The translations under genes and the position numbers were made by a program. From Candidatus Bathyarchaeia archaeon (GTDB lineage: Archaea; Thermoproteota; Bathyarchaeia; 40CM-2-53-6), in NCBI GenBank assembly GCA_049517415.1, contig JBEKSC010000030.1, positions 1 to 28,097 of the forward strand: DNA of 28,097 bases. Reading direction: 5' to 3'. This document shows, piece after piece, positions 5,693 to 27,780 of the stretch. The notes below the pieces were generated by a model, which was given only the letters and a program-made list of their open reading frames with translations, made no database searches and had not been told where the DNA came from. Positions within the stretch are counted from its first letter, which is position 1. Every line of letters starts with the position of its first letter.

Positions 5693-6985
5693 TTATGGAT
5701 AGATTTCCTTGAGCATGAGTCTTATCCGATTTTCTACTTCGCTCGGTTCTACCGCGCCAGTTTCCGTAATGTATTCCGAAACGTCGTGACGTGGCGTAAT
5801 GTCGAAAAGGCCGTTTGAAGCCTGAATCCGTTCACCTAGAAAATCGGCCGTACTGAACTTCATCGACTCGCAGACACTGTAGAAGGGAATTTCCAGTTCT
5901 TTTGCTGCGGCAGCGATGCTCTCGGTTCCGACCTTGTGAAGTAGGGAACCATCCGTCAGAACGCTGTCTGCCCCAACCAACACGAGATCAGCATCCGGAA
6001 TGACTGAACCAGCCGATGAATCGGCGACGAGTTTCACAGGCACACCCAGACCCACGAGGTCCTTAGCGAGATTCTTCCCCTCCATTCCTGGATATGATTC
6101 GGTGGCATAAACTTCGAATTGTTTCCTACTCTTCATGCCTAATTCCAGTGCCCTGAGGACAGTGCTGCTGTAGCTGTGGGTGAGGACATGGCCAGCCTCT
6201 GGCAATATGGAAACAGCGTTTCTCGAGGCGTCCTCCGACGCAAGGCTTGACCGTTGAGTCGTCTGTTCAACTAGCGACCGGATTAACTTCCGGTAATCGG
6301 CAGCGGAAGCCGAGCCATTCTTCCGAGCGGCCGAGAACAGCAACATGCCAACCAGATTTCTTACATTCGCCATAGCTGGTTGCGCCTTGCGCAACTTTAA
6401 CGCCGCAAATAAGAGGTTGCAAAACATTTCCTCCCTAGTTGTGGTCCCTGAAATTTCAGTGGCCGTAGCTAGTAGCTGAAGTGCGCTCCGGCCAATTGTG
6501 CTGGCCCCGTGAACCTTATCCTTCGCAATAGCGTCGACTCCCGTCAATACCTTGATGAGCTCTTCTGGAGCAGATTCGAAGTCGTAGCGGACGCGGTCAA
6601 ACGTCTCTTCGAGTTTCGGGACCGTTTCATACGACCTTAGTTCATCGGGATGAATCCATCTGCATTCCGCATTTTCCCAATCGAGCGTAATTGTATTCGA
6701 ACGCGTATCAAACAGGAATGGGTGAACAACCCAGACAGTCTTCGATTGCTCGTCATACACGCGAAGGACCTCACCTGCCCTCACAAAGCTGATATCCTCG
6801 GAGGATAGACCGAGCTCTTCCTGTATTTCGATTTGCGCGCGATAAAGGGGAACTTCACTTCCTTCAAGGTAGCCGCTTACCGCTGCCCATTTGCCCTTGT
6901 GTGTCCCAACCCTTTCGCTTCTTTTTAGCAGAAGGATTTTCTTATCGGCAATCAGAAACGCGGTTACGACGCTTTTGTATTCCAA
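5693..6985 (-). CDS. Nudix hydrolase fused to an IF-2B / sugar-phosphate isomerase family domain
   Basis: N-terminal Nudix box 'GYLEGSEVPLYRAQIEIQEELGL'. C-terminal 'HGAS', 'QPAMA', 'THSYSSTV', 'LVGADSV', 'KVGT', 'FDITP'. Confidence 0.88.
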   Translation of the reverse strand: MEYKSVVTAFLIADKKILLLKRSERVGTHKGKWAAVSGYLEGSEVPLYRAQIEIQEELGLSSEDISFVRAGEVLRVYDEQSKTVWVVHPFLFDTRSNTITLDWENAECRWIHPDELRSYETVPKLEETFDRVRYDFESAPEELIKVLTGVDAIAKDKVHGASTIGRSALQLLATATEISGTTTREEMFCNLLFAALKLRKAQPAMANVRNLVGMLLFSAARKNGSASAADYRKLIRSLVEQTTQRSSLASEDASRNAVSILPEAGHVLTHSYSSTVLRALELGMKSRKQFEVYATESYPGMEGKNLAKDLVGLGVPVKLVADSSAGSVIPDADLVLVGADSVLTDGSLLHKVGTESIAAAAKELEIPFYSVCESMKFSTADFLGERIQASNGLFDITPRHDVSEYITETGAVEPSEVENRIRLMLKEIYP

Positions 6986-17877: not shown

Positions 17878-18876
17878 TTAGCCGCCTATTGTGTGCATGG
17901 GCCTAACGTGTTCAAGTTTATCAAACTTCTTCAGTAGCGTTTCCACGCCGGTCGCCTTTCGGGATATAGAGTCGCGCATGAAATCTAAAATTGCGTCGTC
18001 GGAGCCCCCGTTTCTGAGTAAAGGCCTGAGGTCGAAGCCCGTCTTGTCGAAAAGGCATGGAACAATTTTCCCGTCCGCTGAGAGCCGTATTCTATCGCAG
18101 TCTGAGCAAAACGGTTCAGTTATCGAGGTAATCACTCCAATCTCGCCTAGGCCATCTTTGAACCGGTAGATTTTCGCCGTGCTCCCAGGTTCCCTCGTCA
18201 CGGGTTCAAGTTGGTACTGCTCTTGAATGGTTTGGATAATCTCTCTTCCGCTCACTACCTTCTTCATTCCCCAAAGGCGTTGCCCGTCGAAGGGCATGTA
18301 TTCGATAAAGCGAACTGTAATCTCGCCGGCCATTGCCAAACCAGCTAAGTCGCCTATCTCGTCTTCATTGCAACCTCGGATGATTACTGCGTTAATTTTG
18401 AGTGGCTGGAACCCGTTCTCCTTCGCCGCCTTGATGCCTTCTACGACTTTGTGGAAAACTCCGCCGCCTGTTATTTCGCTGAATCGTTCGGGTTTGAGGC
18501 TGTGTAGGCTTACGGTTATGCTTTGCAGTCCAGCCTTTCTTAGGGCCTTGGCCTTTTCGGCGAGAAGGAATCCGTTTGTGGTCATGCTCAGCGAGCTGAT
18601 TCCTGGGACGTGTGCCAGCATTTCAACGAGCTTTTCTATATCCCTACGCATCAGCGGCTCCCCTCCGCTTAGGCGGATCTTTTTCACTCCTAGTTTTGCG
18701 AAGAGTGAGACAACTCGCTCGATTTCCTCGTAGCTGAGTATCTCATTCCTGGGCAGCCACACTGGGGTTTTGGGCATGCAGAACTGGCAGCGGAAGTTGC
18801 ATCGGTCCGTAACTGATATGCGGAGCTTGCGCGCAATGCGCCCAAAAGAGTCTGTTAGGGGAATCACGTAACCCAC
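17878..18876 (-). CDS. moaA: GTP 3',8-cyclase (radical SAM)
   Basis: 'LRISVTDRCNFRCQFCMP', 'GGEP', 'FCSDCDRIRL...PCLF', C-terminal 'MHTIGG'. Confidence 0.96.
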   Translation of the reverse strand: MGYVIPLTDSFGRIARKLRISVTDRCNFRCQFCMPKTPVWLPRNEILSYEEIERVVSLFAKLGVKKIRLSGGEPLMRRDIEKLVEMLAHVPGISSLSMTTNGFLLAEKAKALRKAGLQSITVSLHSLKPERFSEITGGGVFHKVVEGIKAAKENGFQPLKINAVIIRGCNEDEIGDLAGLAMAGEITVRFIEYMPFDGQRLWGMKKVVSGREIIQTIQEQYQLEPVTREPGSTAKIYRFKDGLGEIGVITSITEPFCSDCDRIRLSADGKIVPCLFDKTGFDLRPLLRNGGSDDAILDFMRDSISRKATGVETLLKKFDKLEHVRPMHTIGG

Positions 18877-21298: not shown

Positions 21299-21550
21299 AT
21301 GCCCCGAAAAATACCAACCTCATACCTACGCAAGTTGAACGAGGAGCAGAAGAAAGCTAAGGAAATTGCGGCCAAACAGGCAACCAAGAGACCGCAGCCA
21401 GTGGACCCAGATTCGGGGAAGTTGAAGGGGTTTACGATGATTTGCCAAACGTGCGGAAGCCGGGCCCGTTTTACAGTGGATAAGTTTGGGTATGCGACCT
21501 GCGGCAACTGCAGAGCTATAGCAAGCTACAGACTCGGCCACTTAGCCTAA
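21299..21550 (+). CDS. Small basic zinc-ribbon protein (83 aa)
   Basis: Lys-rich N-terminal helix, then 'CQTC...CGNC'. Confidence 0.65.
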   Translation: MPRKIPTSYLRKLNEEQKKAKEIAAKQATKRPQPVDPDSGKLKGFTMICQTCGSRARFTVDKFGYATCGNCRAIASYRLGHLA

Positions 21551-21582
21551 CGTGACCCACAAGAAGACGAGTACTTGGTTGA

Positions 21583-21993
21583 TTAACCGCCCGCAGATAG
21601 CGGTATGAATTGAACGCGATCTCCGTCCTTTAATGAGGCACTAGGCTTCGCTGGGACACCGTTCAACAGAATCAACATCATCTGCATCATTTGTCTCATA
21701 GACGGGTGCCTCACTAGGACTGTGTCCATTAGGTCTTGGAGCGTGGCTGGGCCTTGAAGAACAAAGTACTCATCATTTGCGCTCGTATACTGAGCGATCA
21801 TCGAATAGTACACTGTTACAGTGACAAGTGAGGCTCTGCTCTCAGTTGAGCCGTTTGTCGAAACGGAAGAACTCCCAAGGTTACCCGCGATTTGCGCGAG
21901 AGGAGCTTTTGTGAAGCCGTCCGATATGAGAAGAACTCCTGCGCCAACCGCGATTGAAAATGCGGAGCGTAGAAAAGTGCGCCTTGATTTCAT
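21583..21993 (-). CDS. MoaD/ThiS/SAMP ubiquitin-like protein with N-terminal Tat-like signal
   Basis: 'SRRTFL' + hydrophobic stretch. C-terminal 'ILLNG...LKDGDRVQFIPLSAGG'. Confidence 0.85.
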   Translation of the reverse strand: MKSRRTFLRSAFSIAVGAGVLLISDGFTKAPLAQIAGNLGSSSVSTNGSTESRASLVTVTVYYSMIAQYTSANDEYFVLQGPATLQDLMDTVLVRHPSMRQMMQMMLILLNGVPAKPSASLKDGDRVQFIPLSAGG

Positions 21994-22007
21994 GGCGAGT
22001 CTCTCTA

Positions 22008-23603
22008 TCAGTCAGTAGGCTTTTTGCCGGAGCGTGTGAATAGTAGCATTATGGCCACGAGGACAACGATTCCTAGGGCGCCCAAGCCTACTAGGGTTTG
22101 GCCTGTGAGCGTTATTGTGAAGTTTGTCAGGTCATTGTAACTTGGACTTTGTGAGCCATTCGTTCCTGTGGTTGGTGTCACCGTGATGTGGCCGATCATA
22201 TATGGGTGGACGATGCAGTAGTACTCGTACGTGCCTGGGGTTGTGAATGTGTAGCTCCAGCTTTCACCTCCCCCGATTAATGCAACTTTGCCTGTAACGG
22301 CTTCGCCTGACGAGTCAAAGGCTCGGAGGTTCGCCTGTTTAGGTGAGTTTGGATCCCCTTCAGTAACTGTGTGGCCGACTGAATCTTGGTTTATCCAAGT
22401 TACCGTAGTTCCAATTGGAACCGTCAAGTCAGCTGGGACATAAGCATAGTTCAGAATCAGTACGGTATTGTTCGAAGCACCTGTGCTTGAAGTATTGGAT
22501 AAGCTTTCGGTTGCGGTCATGCTCGTCGTAATGTTCCCAGTTATCGTAGCACTCTTAATGGAAGAGATAATGGCGGGGTTTGGAGTGCCGACCACATTTA
22601 TGATGCCTAGGGCGCCGCGGTGAATTCTGAAAAGCGAATGGTCGACTATGGTTAACTTGGCTGGCACTACGGCAGTGAATTCAACCATCACAGATCCGCC
22701 TGCCGGTACAAGCGTTGTTTGAATGTTAAGCAGGGGCGGTGAGGCAATGGATCCCTCAACGTAGACTTTGTCAAGCATCCCACCTATGATGTGCAATGAC
22801 GAATCGAGGTTAGGTCCCGCGTTTAGGAAGAAGATGCGGACGGTTTCGCCAACTTTCACCTGCAGGGACCTGTTTCCTGTTATGGAGTTTACGCTGCCGT
22901 TGAATACAACGTAGTCAGGTGTCTCGCTGTCGGCTTTTTGAAAACTGAATGCTTGGAATCCTTTCTGCCCGAACGGTCCCTGTGTATAGAATTCCCCCTG
23001 CGCAATGTAGAACTCCCTTTCGACTTTCGGTAACCCGCCGAACGGTTCAACAAGAATCAGCCCATACATTCCATTGGCGATATGCGTTGGTATGTCGGGG
23101 GTTGCGCAATGGTACATGAACAACCCGACTCTCAAGGCTTTGAATTGGAAGATTGTTTCCTGCCCTGGAGGAGTTTGCGAGTACGCACCACCGCCACCTG
23201 TTCCCAGTATGGCGTGGGAATCAATCGAATGGATCATTGTGCTGTTCGGGGGGTTGATGATATGCATCTCAACTGTTTGGTTTAACCGTAACCTTATGAA
23301 AGGGCCAGGCACTGTTCCATTAAACGTCCAATAATCGTAGGTGACTCCGTCAGCCAGTTGCCCAAGTTTCTCCTCCGTTATCAATCTGACGACTACCCGG
23401 TCGGCCGAGGAAGGAGCGGATGGAATGTCGGTTGGAGATTTGCTTCTGTTCGGAGCATAAGCTGGCTGAGTTCCATCAGCGGACACAGTCAAAACAGCCT
23501 GCGTAACTGAGAGAACAGAAAATACAAGCAACAACAGAACGAGAGTGACCTTGGCAACTCTGCCGGGCAAAAGTCTTGTCCTCTCAACTTTACATGTGCA
23601 CAT
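22008..23603 (-). CDS. nirK: Copper nitrite reductase with fused C-terminal cupredoxin and TM anchor
   Basis: 'WTFNGTVPGP', 'HSIDSH', 'YHCA..IPTHIANGMYG', 'SSLHIIG', 'VDHS'. Extra type-1 Cu site 'HTVT...YYCIVHPYM'. C-terminal TM helix. Confidence 0.92.
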   Translation of the reverse strand: MCTCKVERTRLLPGRVAKVTLVLLLLVFSVLSVTQAVLTVSADGTQPAYAPNRSKSPTDIPSAPSSADRVVVRLITEEKLGQLADGVTYDYWTFNGTVPGPFIRLRLNQTVEMHIINPPNSTMIHSIDSHAILGTGGGGAYSQTPPGQETIFQFKALRVGLFMYHCATPDIPTHIANGMYGLILVEPFGGLPKVEREFYIAQGEFYTQGPFGQKGFQAFSFQKADSETPDYVVFNGSVNSITGNRSLQVKVGETVRIFFLNAGPNLDSSLHIIGGMLDKVYVEGSIASPPLLNIQTTLVPAGGSVMVEFTAVVPAKLTIVDHSLFRIHRGALGIINVVGTPNPAIISSIKSATITGNITTSMTATESLSNTSSTGASNNTVLILNYAYVPADLTVPIGTTVTWINQDSVGHTVTEGDPNSPKQANLRAFDSSGEAVTGKVALIGGGESWSYTFTTPGTYEYYCIVHPYMIGHITVTPTTGTNGSQSPSYNDLTNFTITLTGQTLVGLGALGIVVLVAIMLLFTRSGKKPTD

Positions 23604-23650
23604 ATGACTCCCGAGCAACGAACTAGGGGAAGCTTCGGGATAGTGATATT

Positions 23651-23684: not shown

Positions 23685-24353
23685 TCATTCAATGTGAGAG
23701 GAGACTCTTTTGCCCAAGACCGACGGATGTCCCCTAAAGTGCTCCTGTATCACCCGCTTTTGTCCGCGCCTTAGTATCTCTGTCAAGGTTGCTGGCGAAA
23801 CGTCGAGGGTCTTCGCGAGCTGGCGTAGGGTTATCTTCTTCGGGAACTCGAAGTAACCTTTCTCAAGTGCGATTTGAAGAATATTCTCTTGTCTCGCGGT
23901 CAAGTCCTCCTCATCTCTTAGCTTTGAGATCCTAACGACTTCCCCCGCCACGTTCTCTCTTTCCAATTCCCGCATCAGTGATTTAACCATCGTATCACTG
24001 CCGAGAAGCGTCCACTCAAGTTTGCCGTCGGCTTTACTGTTCGCCGAGATAAGGAAGCAGTTTGCTTCGGCAAAGGTTCGGCAGGCAGTGCACTTATGAG
24101 TCTTAAGCGATCCAATAATCCTTCCGCGCTCAGCCCTGACGATGTCAATATCATACACGTAACTATCCTGCCGTAGGTAATCCACAATCTTCTCCGACAA
24201 GTCCGAGCTACTGGTTATCTCGAAGAGTTCCTGAACGCCCTTTCCTGCAGGCAGACTTCTGCAGTCTAGTACACGTACCAGTGCTGGGAAGGTTGCAGCC
24301 ACACGTTTTATCCAACTGTGCGGCGGAGTAATGCTGACGATCGCCTCAAGCAT
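23685..24353 (-). CDS. Bat/HTH-10 family transcriptional regulator with Cys-containing N-terminal domain
   Basis: 'LTARQENILQIALEKGYFEFPKKITLRQLA..LDVSPATLTEILRRG'. 'CTAC' plus further Cys. ATG at 24353. Confidence 0.9.
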   Translation of the reverse strand: MLEAIVSITPPHSWIKRVAATFPALVRVLDCRSLPAGKGVQELFEITSSSDLSEKIVDYLRQDSYVYDIDIVRAERGRIIGSLKTHKCTACRTFAEANCFLISANSKADGKLEWTLLGSDTMVKSLMRELERENVAGEVVRISKLRDEEDLTARQENILQIALEKGYFEFPKKITLRQLAKTLDVSPATLTEILRRGQKRVIQEHFRGHPSVLGKRVSSHIE

Positions 24354-24404
24354 CCAAGGTCTTGACCCCAAACCGGCCACATGCCTATAGGGGTTCTTGA
24401 CGCC

Positions 24405-24479: not shown

Positions 24480-24989
24480 TTGGAGAATCCTAAGGAACCT
24501 CCGAGCCGCAGAACTTCAGAGATCGAGCAAAGGTCGCCACGGAGAAGCGTCGAAGGCAACGCTGGAAAAAGCTCGAGGCTTACATTCGAGCTTGCTGAGG
24601 ATCACAAGGAGATTCTTCGACAATTAGATCTGTTGAAGGTCACGCGCAAACTGGTTAGAAGCAATTCCAAGCCCACCATCATCTGCATCCACCTACAGCA
24701 ACTGTTCGCACAACATTGCGCAAGGGAGCAACGTTTCCTATACCCTCTCCTCAGCCGCTACTTGGATTCGAATGTATGCAAATTGTTAACCCAAGAGCAT
24801 GAAGCGCTCAGTAACGCAATGCGAAAAGCCGTCGAACAAATTCGTGGCAATGGCAAAGATACGTATTGGGAATCGATGTCACAACTTGATCAAATGCTGC
24901 GCTCGCATTTCTCAAAGGAAGAAAACGTCCTCTTCTGGTATTTGGACGTGCAACTGAACCCCCGAAGTTCTTTCGAACTTCCTTCTTGA
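24480..24989 (+). CDS. Hemerythrin / HHE cation-binding domain protein
   Basis: 'EDH', 'HCAREQRFLYP', 'QEH', 'HFSKEENVLF'. Confidence 0.85.
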   Translation: MENPKEPPSRRTSEIEQRSPRRSVEGNAGKSSRLTFELAEDHKEILRQLDLLKVTRKLVRSNSKPTIICIHLQQLFAQHCAREQRFLYPLLSRYLDSNVCKLLTQEHEALSNAMRKAVEQIRGNGKDTYWESMSQLDQMLRSHFSKEENVLFWYLDVQLNPRSSFELPS

Positions 24990-25102: not shown

Positions 25103-25777
25103 TCAGGAAGGAGGAACCAGTTCTAGGGCGGCCAATTCTGAAGTCCTCCTCAGGCGCATATCAAAGACTGCTTCGAAACTCTTGTGCACTTCATTCTTGA
25201 CGAGGCCGAAGTCCATCTCCCTACCAAGTAGAGCTTTCATTGAGATCATCGTTGAGCCTGGGAATCCACATGGGGTTATCATCTGGAAGTAATTCAGGTC
25301 GGTGTTTACATTGAGTGCAAACCCATGAAAGGTAACCCAGTTTCGAACTGCCGCTCCGATTGAAGCTACCTTTTTTCTACCAACCCAAACGCCCGTCTGC
25401 TCTCCGCGCTCTCCCGTAATTCCGAACTTAGCGAGAGCCCGGATTATCGTCTCCTCGATGTTCCGGAGGAACGTATGGATGTCCCGCTGGCGTGCATTTA
25501 GGTCTAGGATGGGGTACCCGACCAACTGGCCCGGGCCATGGTAAGTCCATTGGCCGCCTCGCTCTATCCTGAAGACGGGGACACCCTCCACGGTTGCTGG
25601 GACTTCTCCTGCGATCCCCTTCCCCACTGTGAAAACGTGCGGGTGCTCCACGAACACCAACGTGTCCGGTATGGCCTGCTTAACTCGAAGCTCGAGCAGC
25701 TTGCGCTGTAGGTTCCAGACTTCCGCGTAATCCCGCGAGCCTAGGTCTAGGAGATACCCTTCGATTATTGTAGGCAT
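25103..25777 (-). CDS. lipB: Lipoyl(octanoyl) transferase
   Basis: 'EHPHVFTVG', 'RGGQWTYHGPGQLVGYPI', 'KVASIG', 'HGFALN', 'ITPCG'. Confidence 0.95.
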   Translation of the reverse strand: MPTIIEGYLLDLGSRDYAEVWNLQRKLLELRVKQAIPDTLVFVEHPHVFTVGKGIAGEVPATVEGVPVFRIERGGQWTYHGPGQLVGYPILDLNARQRDIHTFLRNIEETIIRALAKFGITGERGEQTGVWVGRKKVASIGAAVRNWVTFHGFALNVNTDLNYFQMITPCGFPGSTMISMKALLGREMDFGLVKNEVHKSFEAVFDMRLRRTSELAALELVPPS

Positions 25778-25822
25778 CGAGGCATCTCACGATGCGCTAG
25801 AAAGCACGTAGCGTCGAATCAA

Positions 25823-26371
25823 TTAGAGGTACCCTGCCCTTTCCAGTACGTCTCGATGCCCCCGCGCAAGCTTCATCTTACGGACCTTCGCGGTTGGAAG
25901 GAAGCGCATCTCGGACCACCACGGCCTAATCTTGGGTAACTGCCCGATTCGCATCTCGTAAACGAAGCAAATGTCCCAGTGCCGCAATTTTCTCCCGGAC
26001 CGCTTGTACCCGGGTTTCCTAGGTGTCTGCGGCCTAACATGAGATTGCACCATGACGAAGCGAGGGGTCCCCGTAAGGCCGGCCCACTGGTGGGCGATTC
26101 GGCGGGCGGCGTTATCGGGCGGCTCTTCCATCAGAAGATGAGTCGCAGGAAGCAACCATGCACCCTCTTTCTCAATCTCACCCGCATTGCGTTTCGGGAA
26201 ACCGCCTTTCTCAGGCCAAGCGTCATGTGCCTTCGGGCGGCCGAAGAGTATTGAATCACCTTTTCGGGCAACGATGAAAGCGGATAGGCATAAACCAGCT
26301 TCGGGGGTATGAGTCATCCAAGACGCAGTTCGAGGGCCTATTCGCGCCCACCGCACATTTACAGGTCGCAT
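25823..26371 (-). CDS. Basic protein with degenerate Nudix fold
   Basis: 'WLLPATHLLMEEPPDNAARRIAHQWAGL' aligns with the Nudix box. 'HWDICFVY' downstream. Confidence 0.65.
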   Translation of the reverse strand: MRPVNVRWARIGPRTASWMTHTPEAGLCLSAFIVARKGDSILFGRPKAHDAWPEKGGFPKRNAGEIEKEGAWLLPATHLLMEEPPDNAARRIAHQWAGLTGTPRFVMVQSHVRPQTPRKPGYKRSGRKLRHWDICFVYEMRIGQLPKIRPWWSEMRFLPTAKVRKMKLARGHRDVLERAGYL

Positions 26372-26388
26372 AAGAATTCCTTCAGTTA

Positions 26389-27780
26389 TTATTTTTGTAG
26401 AATATGAATTGCTTTTCCTTTTGCGGCTTCCGAAGCTTCCATGATGCTTTCGGGCAAGGTTGGGTGTGGGTGTACCGTGAATCCAATGTCCTCCACAGTC
26501 GCGCCCATTTCAATCGCGAGCGCAGCCTCGCTGATCATATCCGACGCTTCGGCGCCAACGATGTGAACGCCCAAGACAAGGTCTGAGCTCCTGTCCGCAA
26601 CTATTTTCACGAATCCCTCGGTTTCTCCGGCTAGCATTGCGCGGCCCAGAGCTGTGAAAGGAAACTTTCCAACAATTGGATCGTAGCCCTTCTCTCTTGC
26701 TTGAGCTTCAGTGAGGCCGACTGTTGCAATTTCGGGGTCCGAGAAGATCACGCCAGCGATCGCGCGGAAGTCTGCTTCACTGTTCATGCCTGCGATGGCT
26801 TCGGCCGCTACGATGCCTTCCTTCGAGGCTTTATGGGCTAGCATTGGTGGGCCGACTATGTCGCCTATGGCGTAGATGCCGGGCACGTTCGTTTGCATTT
26901 TCTTATCGACCTGAATGAAACCGTGTGTATCTGTCTTCACGCCGGTCGCTTGCAGTCCAATCTGGTCGCTGTTCGGGCGCCTTCCCACTGTAACCAGGAC
27001 TTTGTCAGCATCGAACGCCGCTTCCTTGCCATCCTCCAATTCAGCGTAAACTTTCCCGCCGCGAAATTCTTTAGCCTTCGATTTCACGTGGTAATCCACG
27101 CCAAGTTTGCGGAGGGAACGTTCTACGACTCTCACCAGTTCAATATCCGTCTCTGGGAGAAGCTGCTCCAACATTTCAATAATCGTGACTTTGCTTCCGA
27201 GTTCGGTGTACATGGTTCCCATCTCTAGCCCCGTGACGCCTCCGCCGATTATGACGAGGTTCTTTGGAATCTCTTGAAGCGCGAGGGCTTCGGTTGAGCT
27301 GATTATGCGTGTTCCATCAAACCTGAAGGTGGGAAGGTCGAAGTAGCGTGAGCCAGCCGCTATCACAACTTCCTTTGCCTCTATGCTCTCGATCCCAGCG
27401 GCGGTCTCTACTTCAAGTTGCTTTGGGCCTTTGAAGGTGCCTATGCCCTTGATGATTTTGACATTATTCCCTTTGCACAAGTATTCGACGCCTTGCGTTA
27501 GCCGGTCTACTACACTCTGCTTCCACGCCTGTACCTTAGGAAAATCGACCCTAAGGCCGGTCACTTCGAGGCCGATCTGTTTGGCGGCTTCGAGCCTCTT
27601 CTTCAGTTTAGCTACGCGGATGAGCGCTTTGGAGGGGATGCATCCTATATTCAAACAAACTCCGCCGAGTTGACCCTTTTCGATTAGAGTTGTTTCTTTC
27701 CCAAGCTGGCCTAGCCTGATGGCGGCCACGTACCCGCCTGGTCCTGCTCCGAGAACGAGAACTTCTGTTTTCTGCGCCAT
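26389..27780 (-). CDS. lpdA: Dihydrolipoyl dehydrogenase
   Basis: 'GAGPGGY', 'GGVCLNIGCIPSK', 'LAHKAS', 'HPHPTLPE'. Confidence 0.96.
   Translation of the reverse strand: MAQKTEVLVLGAGPGGYVAAIRLGQLGKETTLIEKGQLGGVCLNIGCIPSKALIRVAKLKKRLEAAKQIGLEVTGLRVDFPKVQAWKQSVVDRLTQGVEYLCKGNNVKIIKGIGTFKGPKQLEVETAAGIESIEAKEVVIAAGSRYFDLPTFRFDGTRIISSTEALALQEIPKNLVIIGGGVTGLEMGTMYTELGSKVTIIEMLEQLLPETDIELVRVVERSLRKLGVDYHVKSKAKEFRGGKVYAELEDGKEAAFDADKVLVTVGRRPNSDQIGLQATGVKTDTHGFIQVDKKMQTNVPGIYAIGDIVGPPMLAHKASKEGIVAAEAIAGMNSEADFRAIAGVIFSDPEIATVGLTEAQAREKGYDPIVGKFPFTALGRAMLAGETEGFVKIVADRSSDLVLGVHIVGAEASDMISEAALAIEMGATVEDIGFTVHPHPTLPESIMEASEAAKGKAIHILQK

Follow-up and report, generated by a model that had tools for sequence, protein, structure and literature searches.

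A MoaD-like protein with a twin-arginine-type signal encoded beside nirK in Bathyarchaeia, a candidate accessory of exported copper proteins

Ubiquitin-like relatives and copper-protein helpers

The closest described relatives of the protein considered here are small beta-grasp proteins, MoaD (PF02597; PDB 1vjk, 6jbz) and SAMP1 of Haloferax (NF041918; PDB 3po0). ThiS, MoaD and SAMP proteins are regarded as cytoplasmic because the chemistry of their C-terminal Gly-Gly (GG) needs ATP, and SAMPs are cytoplasmic proteins without signals. The nearest parallels in proposed role have unrelated folds. AccA, a PCuAC protein of Neisseria, is described in excerpts of PMC13006917 as an extracytoplasmic Cu(I) donor that delivers copper to the NirK-type enzyme AniA, and MelC1, the tyrosinase caddie of Streptomyces, is described in excerpts of PMC3817396 as a small helper that acts with a Tat-secreted copper enzyme and shares a two-gene operon with it. 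The latter excerpts also cover the Met/His Cu(I) site of CusF, and the metallation of Sec-exported cuproenzymes outside the cell membrane.

The window analysed (28,097 nt of contig JBEKSC010000030.1, from a Candidatus Bathyarchaeia archaeon) carries a gene for a MoaD-like protein together with nirK (Table 1). This protein shares with MoaD the fold, a ThiS-family score above cut-off and a free GG at canonical spacing. It departs from MoaD in that a twin-arginine-type signal and a linker are added, R[ED] and the second proline are lost, the domain is Met-rich and acidic, and scores fall below the cut-offs of TIGR01687 (26.7 against 49.5) and TIGR01682 (16.9 against 66.15 bits). The usual company of moaD - Moco, MoaE, MoeB or AOR genes - does not recur around the gene, which sits with nirK instead. 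Fold and GG are likewise those of SAMP1, but NF041918 gives no hit to this protein at E up to 0.1 and matches 25 of 98 family members weakly (best E 2.5e-5). With AccA the likeness is one of functional analogy only, there being neither a PF04314 hit nor the HXnMX21/22HXM motif, and the situation differs from that of MelC1 in that NirK here has its own non-RR signal and a membrane anchor. Literature searches, which covered few subscription journals, returned no title or abstract on a signal-bearing MoaD, and none appears in excerpts, supplements apart, of PMC1779556, PMC2948915, PMC1949818 and PMC11237513. An exported variant of the MoaD family, if that is what the sequence encodes, has apparently not been described before.

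Table 1. Features of the nirK cassette, in window coordinates
Feature	Position	Strand	Basis or remark
Gene for MoaD-like protein with predicted Tat signal	21583..21993	minus	ORF and homologues; 136 aa plus stop
Twin-arginine-type signal or anchor, residues 1-24	21922..21993	minus	RR codons 21979-21984; hydrophobic residues 10-24
Variable S/T-rich linker, residues 25-55	21829..21921	minus	Holds N47-G48-S49 sequon, not conserved
ThiS/MoaD beta-grasp domain, residues 56-136, Met-rich	21586..21828	minus	PF02597, Foldseek, conservation
C-terminal Gly-Gly (G135-G136)	21586..21591	minus	Stop codon next
14-nt spacer, nirK stop (TGA) to MoaD-like start codon	21994..22007	minus	Sequence
NirK, copper nitrite reductase with fused C-terminal cupredoxin	22008..23618	minus	TIGR02376, 320.5 bits against cut-off 296.3
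HTH_10 transcription regulator with Cys cluster	23685..24380	minus	PF04967; upstream of nirK, conserved by synteny
Hemerythrin/HHE protein, divergent, often in cassette	24480..24989	plus	PF01814; synteny

A conserved N-terminal extension on a beta-grasp domain

The architecture proposed in a first-pass annotation of this DNA (an arginine pair, a hydrophobic region, a linker with an NGS sequon, a beta-grasp domain and a terminal GG) can be read back from the ORF, and the family assignment made there is borne out by PF02597, with 33.1 bits against a cut-off of 22.5. The plus strand of 21583-21993 has no open frame. The protein begins S3-R4-R5-T6-F7-L8-R9, followed by 15 uncharged residues (10-24), and in this genome it has no lipobox cysteine. 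An AlphaFold2 model is confident for the domain and disordered for residues 15-51 (pLDDT <50); its best Foldseek matches are MoaD (6jbz_B, E 8.5e-7) and SAMP1 (3po0, E 2e-5). The five-stranded beta-grasp fold of the model and the free C-terminal GG place the protein in the ThiS/MoaD superfamily. Convergent on the gene is an 83-aa zinc-ribbon-like ORF (window 21299-21550, plus strand), near-identical in three close loci.

Homologues were drawn from several collections. From 121 database candidates 82 were accepted: 64 have RRxF and GG, two have RRxF with a cut C-terminus, and 16 lack the pattern, 14 of these being called from downstream starts, one having KR and one RRRM. Metagenome DNA gave 92 loci, of which 80 were kept and 73 are distinct. 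A profile search of a 50%-identity library returned a best 150 of 201 matches, 149 once a 2130-aa protein was dropped; among the matches listed, 59 combine RR with a hydrophobic stretch, 20 have such a stretch but no RR as called, 17 carry another extension, and 53 are short. The 59 signal-bearing representatives among these matches have a median domain identity of 41%, and PF02597 matches 98/98 family members at E up to 1. Scanning a genome collection with one short pattern confirmed at least 11 loci, 10 in the family, mostly titled Nitrososphaeria/Thaumarchaeota or uncultured archaea. A single-protein query against 38 genomes of other genera in the order drew no hit; nine other matches in a 401-genome phylum sample scored much more weakly than members of the family (E 4e-15 to 9e-13) and were left uncounted. 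A 71-member archaeal ThiS cluster in the ESM Atlas is possibly that of the MoaD-like protein itself. Because the organisms behind the family loci are related and few habitats are represented, the loci cannot be taken as independent observations.

What can be said of the extension? R5 and L8 occur in all 68 close homologues that have an N-terminus, and R4 and F7 in 67 of them. The 73 metagenome loci comprise 66 with RR, three with KR, three cut by a contig end and one deletion remnant (L118). Across the 59 representatives among the matches listed, the signal context is S/T-R-R-x-[LAFV]-L-[RK]. Within codons 1-24 of 30 distinct homologous loci, substitutions number 422, 177 and 138 at third, first and second positions respectively, and the RR codons vary synonymously; this third-position bias and synonymous variation argue that the extension is translated and conserved. 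The first-pass annotation had left room for homologues without the extension or the arginines, and for a true start downstream; both features are kept in homologues, and the codon-position bias supports the annotated start.

A strict, simplified rule ([ST]RRxF[LIM] plus a hydrophobic stretch) picks only three ORFs in the 2.65 Mb genome, the MoaD-like gene among them, and the six other ThiS genes of that genome have no such extension. By the Tat model TIGR01409 the protein scores 13.2 bits, below the cut-off of 16.7, and even at E up to 1 the model matches only 39 of the 98 members of the family (lowest E 2.6e-4). Judged by sequence, the conserved S/T-R-R-x-F-L-K-type motif followed by a hydrophobic stretch is that of a putative Tat substrate. 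The source genome has tatC, with an adjacent ORF that is tatA-like by eye, and tatC is found in 4/5 Nitrososphaeria-type genomes tested and in 48/61 genomes of the order; being so widespread, the machinery is necessary, yet not discriminating. From the signal we infer that the MoaD-like protein would be exported via Tat.

The linker, in contrast to these conserved features, varies. It spans 7-62 aa with 31% S+T in the 59 representatives among the matches listed, and a sequon is present in 17/66 close homologues and in 19/59 distant ones among those matches, against 16.1 expected from shuffles. The NGS sequon singled out in the earlier annotation is present here but stands at chance frequency in the family; it was rejected as a conserved feature and carries no weight.

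Genomic company of the MoaD-like gene

The upstream gene passes the NirK cut-off, and the 14-nt distance first given for the two genes is exact. NirK (536 aa) begins with a hydrophobic signal that lacks RR and ends in a membrane anchor. Residues that we take, from established knowledge of NirK, to be copper-site or catalytic (H130, D133, H135, H170, C171, H179, M184, H276 and H327) and cupredoxin ligands (H416, C468, H471 and M474) are all present, and are invariant in 38 homologues. The HTH_10 regulator carries a conserved C...CxxC-x7-C cluster and presumably resembles haloarchaeal regulators of anaerobic respiration such as NarO or DmsR. NirK-plastocyanin fusions are known in archaea, according to excerpts of PMC11237513, and excerpts of PMC11619403 report nirK from Bathyarchaeia peat genomes.

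A contig from a peat RNA library, belonging to a relative (148 differences in 1587 nt), spans 21905-23492 and so crosses the boundary between nirK and the MoaD-like gene. One RNA run contained a small fraction of the region, and the scarce or missing cover outside 21496-23603 carries no weight. The short gap and this one contig suggest, if weakly, that the two genes lie on one transcript, so that co-transcription, which the first-pass annotation took as apparent, is best put as a suggestion. A sigma-70 promoter/terminator scan, by a model unsuited to archaea, found no more than shuffles did.

Is the association with nirK a general one? Of the 60 metagenome loci that allow a judgement, 58 have immediately upstream a same-strand gene with a NirK-type cupredoxin end (58/73 overall), this end being the only means by which nirK was recognised on short contigs. 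The other 15 of the 73 comprise 13 with <400 nt upstream, one rearranged locus with nirK nearby and one remnant. Among the genome-collection loci linkage holds in 6/10, and in five of these the nirK belongs to another clade; the Nitrososphaeria partner is 34-37% identical in the four loci compared. In five non-Bathyarchaeia loci the MoaD-like gene follows nirK, and at least four of these loci have an upstream HTH regulator. Within the genus, nirK occurs in 9/23 genomes: the MoaD-like gene is adjacent to it or inside the cassette in G000, G005, G010, G013 (both frameshifted), G016 and G022, in G019 gene and cassette were joined across a contig break, and in G012 and G017 (2/9) no MoaD-like gene was found beside nirK or elsewhere in the genome. 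The link to nirK, for whose absence the earlier annotation had allowed, spans two archaeal classes; it is strong, not obligatory.

Several loci depart from this arrangement. In L032, L033 and L117 a hemerythrin gene, not nirK, lies directly upstream, and nirK is divergent nearby where the contig reaches. In the decayed cassette L031 (G013:C15) regulator, nirK and MoaD-like gene are all frameshifted, by decay or sequencing error, and in the remnants L118 and L142 the signal region is gone and nirK deleted or absent. Members of a 117-aa subfamily face, in four loci, an operon in which cupredoxin-like genes accompany NrfC-like and NrfD ones, the cupredoxin-like calls being made by eye without Pfam hits. 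The neighbours of L134, L136 and L137 are cupredoxin-type, NrfCD or Rieske/cytochrome b genes, with no nirK. The operon itself (L036-L039, e.g. L038:912-5863, and L136:1-2225) encodes two cupredoxin-like proteins, one of them a membrane protein and the other marked by a CxxxC motif, together with a 4Fe-4S protein of NrfC type that has an RR signal and an NrfD whose long C-terminal extension includes another RR-hydrophobic segment; neither a molybdopterin subunit nor a cytochrome c was seen in the operon. It possibly specifies a copper-based quinol-oxidising complex.

Recurring neighbours of the family are nirK, HTH_10, hemerythrin, CopD and cupin genes; E1, rhodanese and MoaE genes are not among them. 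CopD lies 46-701 nt downstream in 7/92 loci, two of which are duplicates of one sequence. A 167-aa membrane protein (L102:1159-1659; in the source genome C4:9007-9450) with a weak match to the COX1 C-terminus (E 1.7e-4, under cut-off) occurs in 32/92 loci, downstream of the MoaD-like gene where looked at. In the window, moaA (17878-18876, minus strand) lies 2.7 kb downstream, in a neighbourhood that recurs only in near-identical loci; its proximity looks coincidental. Just upstream of the nirK cassette are lipoyl ligase B and dihydrolipoamide dehydrogenase-like genes (window 25103-27780, minus strand), and at window 5693-6985 (minus strand) a NUDIX domain is fused to an IF-2B-family sugar-phosphate isomerase domain.

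Possible copper loading and competing readings of the domain

Taken together, signal and gene context indicate that the MoaD-like protein is probably a Tat-exported accessory of extracytoplasmic copper proteins, the sub-threshold TIGR01409 score and its matches in 39/98 members weighing against this. Among the three ideas of the first-pass annotation, that of a NirK accessory factor is the best supported. Because cupredoxin/NrfCD operons without nirK flank some members, the partner is more aptly described as exported copper proteins at large.

More specifically, the protein may be a copper-loading factor for NirK and cupredoxins, a reading which we favour tentatively and at somewhat short of even confidence. 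It is favoured by the export signal, the exported copper partners, the CopD neighbours, the fixed methionines and the fact that no PCuAC (PF04314) or SCO gene was found in the source genome, and by the analogy with AccA-AniA and MelC1. The MoaD-derived domain would fold in the cytoplasm and the folded protein would exit through Tat, probably staying tethered by its uncleaved signal. The Met-rich end of the beta-grasp domain would bind Cu(I) and pass it to Sec-exported NirK, with its cupredoxin domain, metallated outside. The GG tail, at the same end, might dock in a pocket of the partner or be E1-modified before export; judged by beta-grasp topology and the strands of the model, the tail base would indeed lie together with the close of strand 1 and the beginning of strand 3 at one end of the domain.

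Domain methionines in this protein are M65, M89, M99, M102, M103, M105 and M106. Among the matches listed, M106, M102 and M66 are found in 58, 57 and 55 of 59 representatives, level with GG (57/59). All three occur together in 52/59 of these representatives against 0/23 canonical MoaDs, a contrast that is partly biased since the canonical set (n=23, same search) excluded sequences with QM/GM after strand 1. Family domains have 4.4 Met against 1.7. Several points count against copper loading. First, family position 66, Met in 80/82 close homologues, is Ile in this protein, with M65 adjacent. Second, canonical MoaDs also have hydrophobic residues at 102 and 106, and in 11/23 of them one or more of the three positions is Met, so that the family methionines may be structural; no Cys is conserved in the family domain. 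Third, an invariant GG has no obvious use in a pure copper chaperone. Finally, in G012 and G017, which have nirK, the gene was not found. H96 was considered as a family-specific ligand and rejected, as canonical MoaDs share it.

The GG tail is what an E1-activated carrier would be expected to keep. In such a carrier the tail would be adenylated and thiocarboxylated inside, and the folded protein would be exported with its load of sulfur, or of thiocarboxylate-bound copper, by Tat, the route taken by proteins that are loaded before export. GG is present in 72/73 metagenome loci, the remaining one being cut by a contig end, and among the matches listed GG and stop keep the canonical distance from P131 in 57/59 representatives. 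The source genome has three ThiF-family genes and E1 hits occur in 23/23 genomes of the genus. The residues of the domain tell against activation, however. R[ED], Ala and second-Pro positions contact E1 or MoaE, and among the matches listed R[ED] in helix 1 is kept in 1/59 family representatives against 18/23 canonical proteins, while Ala at position 128, before the end of the last strand, is Asp in 48/59; the second Pro of PPxxGG, present in 21/23 canonical MoaDs, falls outside the five residues most often seen there in family members. Add to this the lack of E1, rhodanese or MoaE as recurring neighbours, a carrier genome (G457, completeness not given) with no full E1 match, and that we know of no sulfur cofactor in NirK, and such a carrier appears unlikely. 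A combined form, in which a ubiquitin-like carrier activated by E1 in the cytoplasm uses its Met cluster together with a C-terminal thiocarboxylate to bind copper, is exported folded and loaded by Tat and metallates NirK and cupredoxins, we likewise regard as rather unlikely.

Another interpretation dispenses with metal altogether. The protein could be an adaptor or regulator whose acidic, Met-rich surface docks on the cupredoxin or NirK and organises or gates electron transfer, with GG inserted in a pocket of the partner. Both gene contexts include cupredoxin-type domains, mean net charge is -4.0 in the family against -0.65 in canonical MoaDs, and Met-rich patches serve as pliable binding surfaces. 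Such an adaptor nevertheless leaves unexplained why a small cofactor-free domain should use Tat and not Sec, and we think it a doubtful account.

Could the domain instead remain in the cytoplasm, the RR-hydrophobic segment serving only as an anchor for a sulfur carrier or modifier under the nirK regulator? The Tat score is under cut-off, no cleavage site is clear, and an invariant GG could most readily be put to use in the compartment of E1 and ATP. What is conserved, though, is not general basic charge but two specific arginines and a leucine at +4, and the S/T-rich linkers resemble those of exported neighbours; moreover, with basic residues before the hydrophobic stretch, the positive-inside rule would put the domain outside by either route. 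An anchored cytoplasmic domain is accordingly improbable.

The conjugatable export tag of the first-pass annotation, ligated through GG to signal-less proteins so as to carry them through Tat, would account for the joint conservation of GG and RR, and excerpts of PMC2948915 describe SAMP-type conjugation in archaea. The idea is weak because the partners carry signals of their own - NirK a hydrophobic signal and a C-terminal anchor, the NrfC-like neighbour an RR signal - and the cassette has no recurring signal-less cargo; we consider it very unlikely. That the protein is a normal cytoplasmic MoaD whose start was mis-called and whose place beside nirK is accidental, to which the 14 of 82 database homologues called from downstream starts might point, is ruled out by the codon and synteny data. 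Only one of 73 loci (the L118 remnant) lacks the signal without being cut, and the family forms a separate clade on a quick domain-only tree (81 columns), in which one branch (SH-aLRT 96) parts 60 signal-bearing from 23 canonical sequences.

We return to the exported accessory and its possible role in copper loading. The main fact that copper loading leaves unexplained is the invariant GG. Tight selection on GG in a protein with an export signal would mean that ubiquitin-like proteins are exported in activated form, or else that GG serves some further purpose outside. If the combined carrier were correct, it would be an extracytoplasmic ubiquitin-like cofactor carrier that links sulfur-relay chemistry to copper trafficking. 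The MoaD-like protein is a concrete candidate for the copper loading of nitrite reductase, which catalyses an NO-producing step of peatland nitrogen cycling, in soil and peat archaea.
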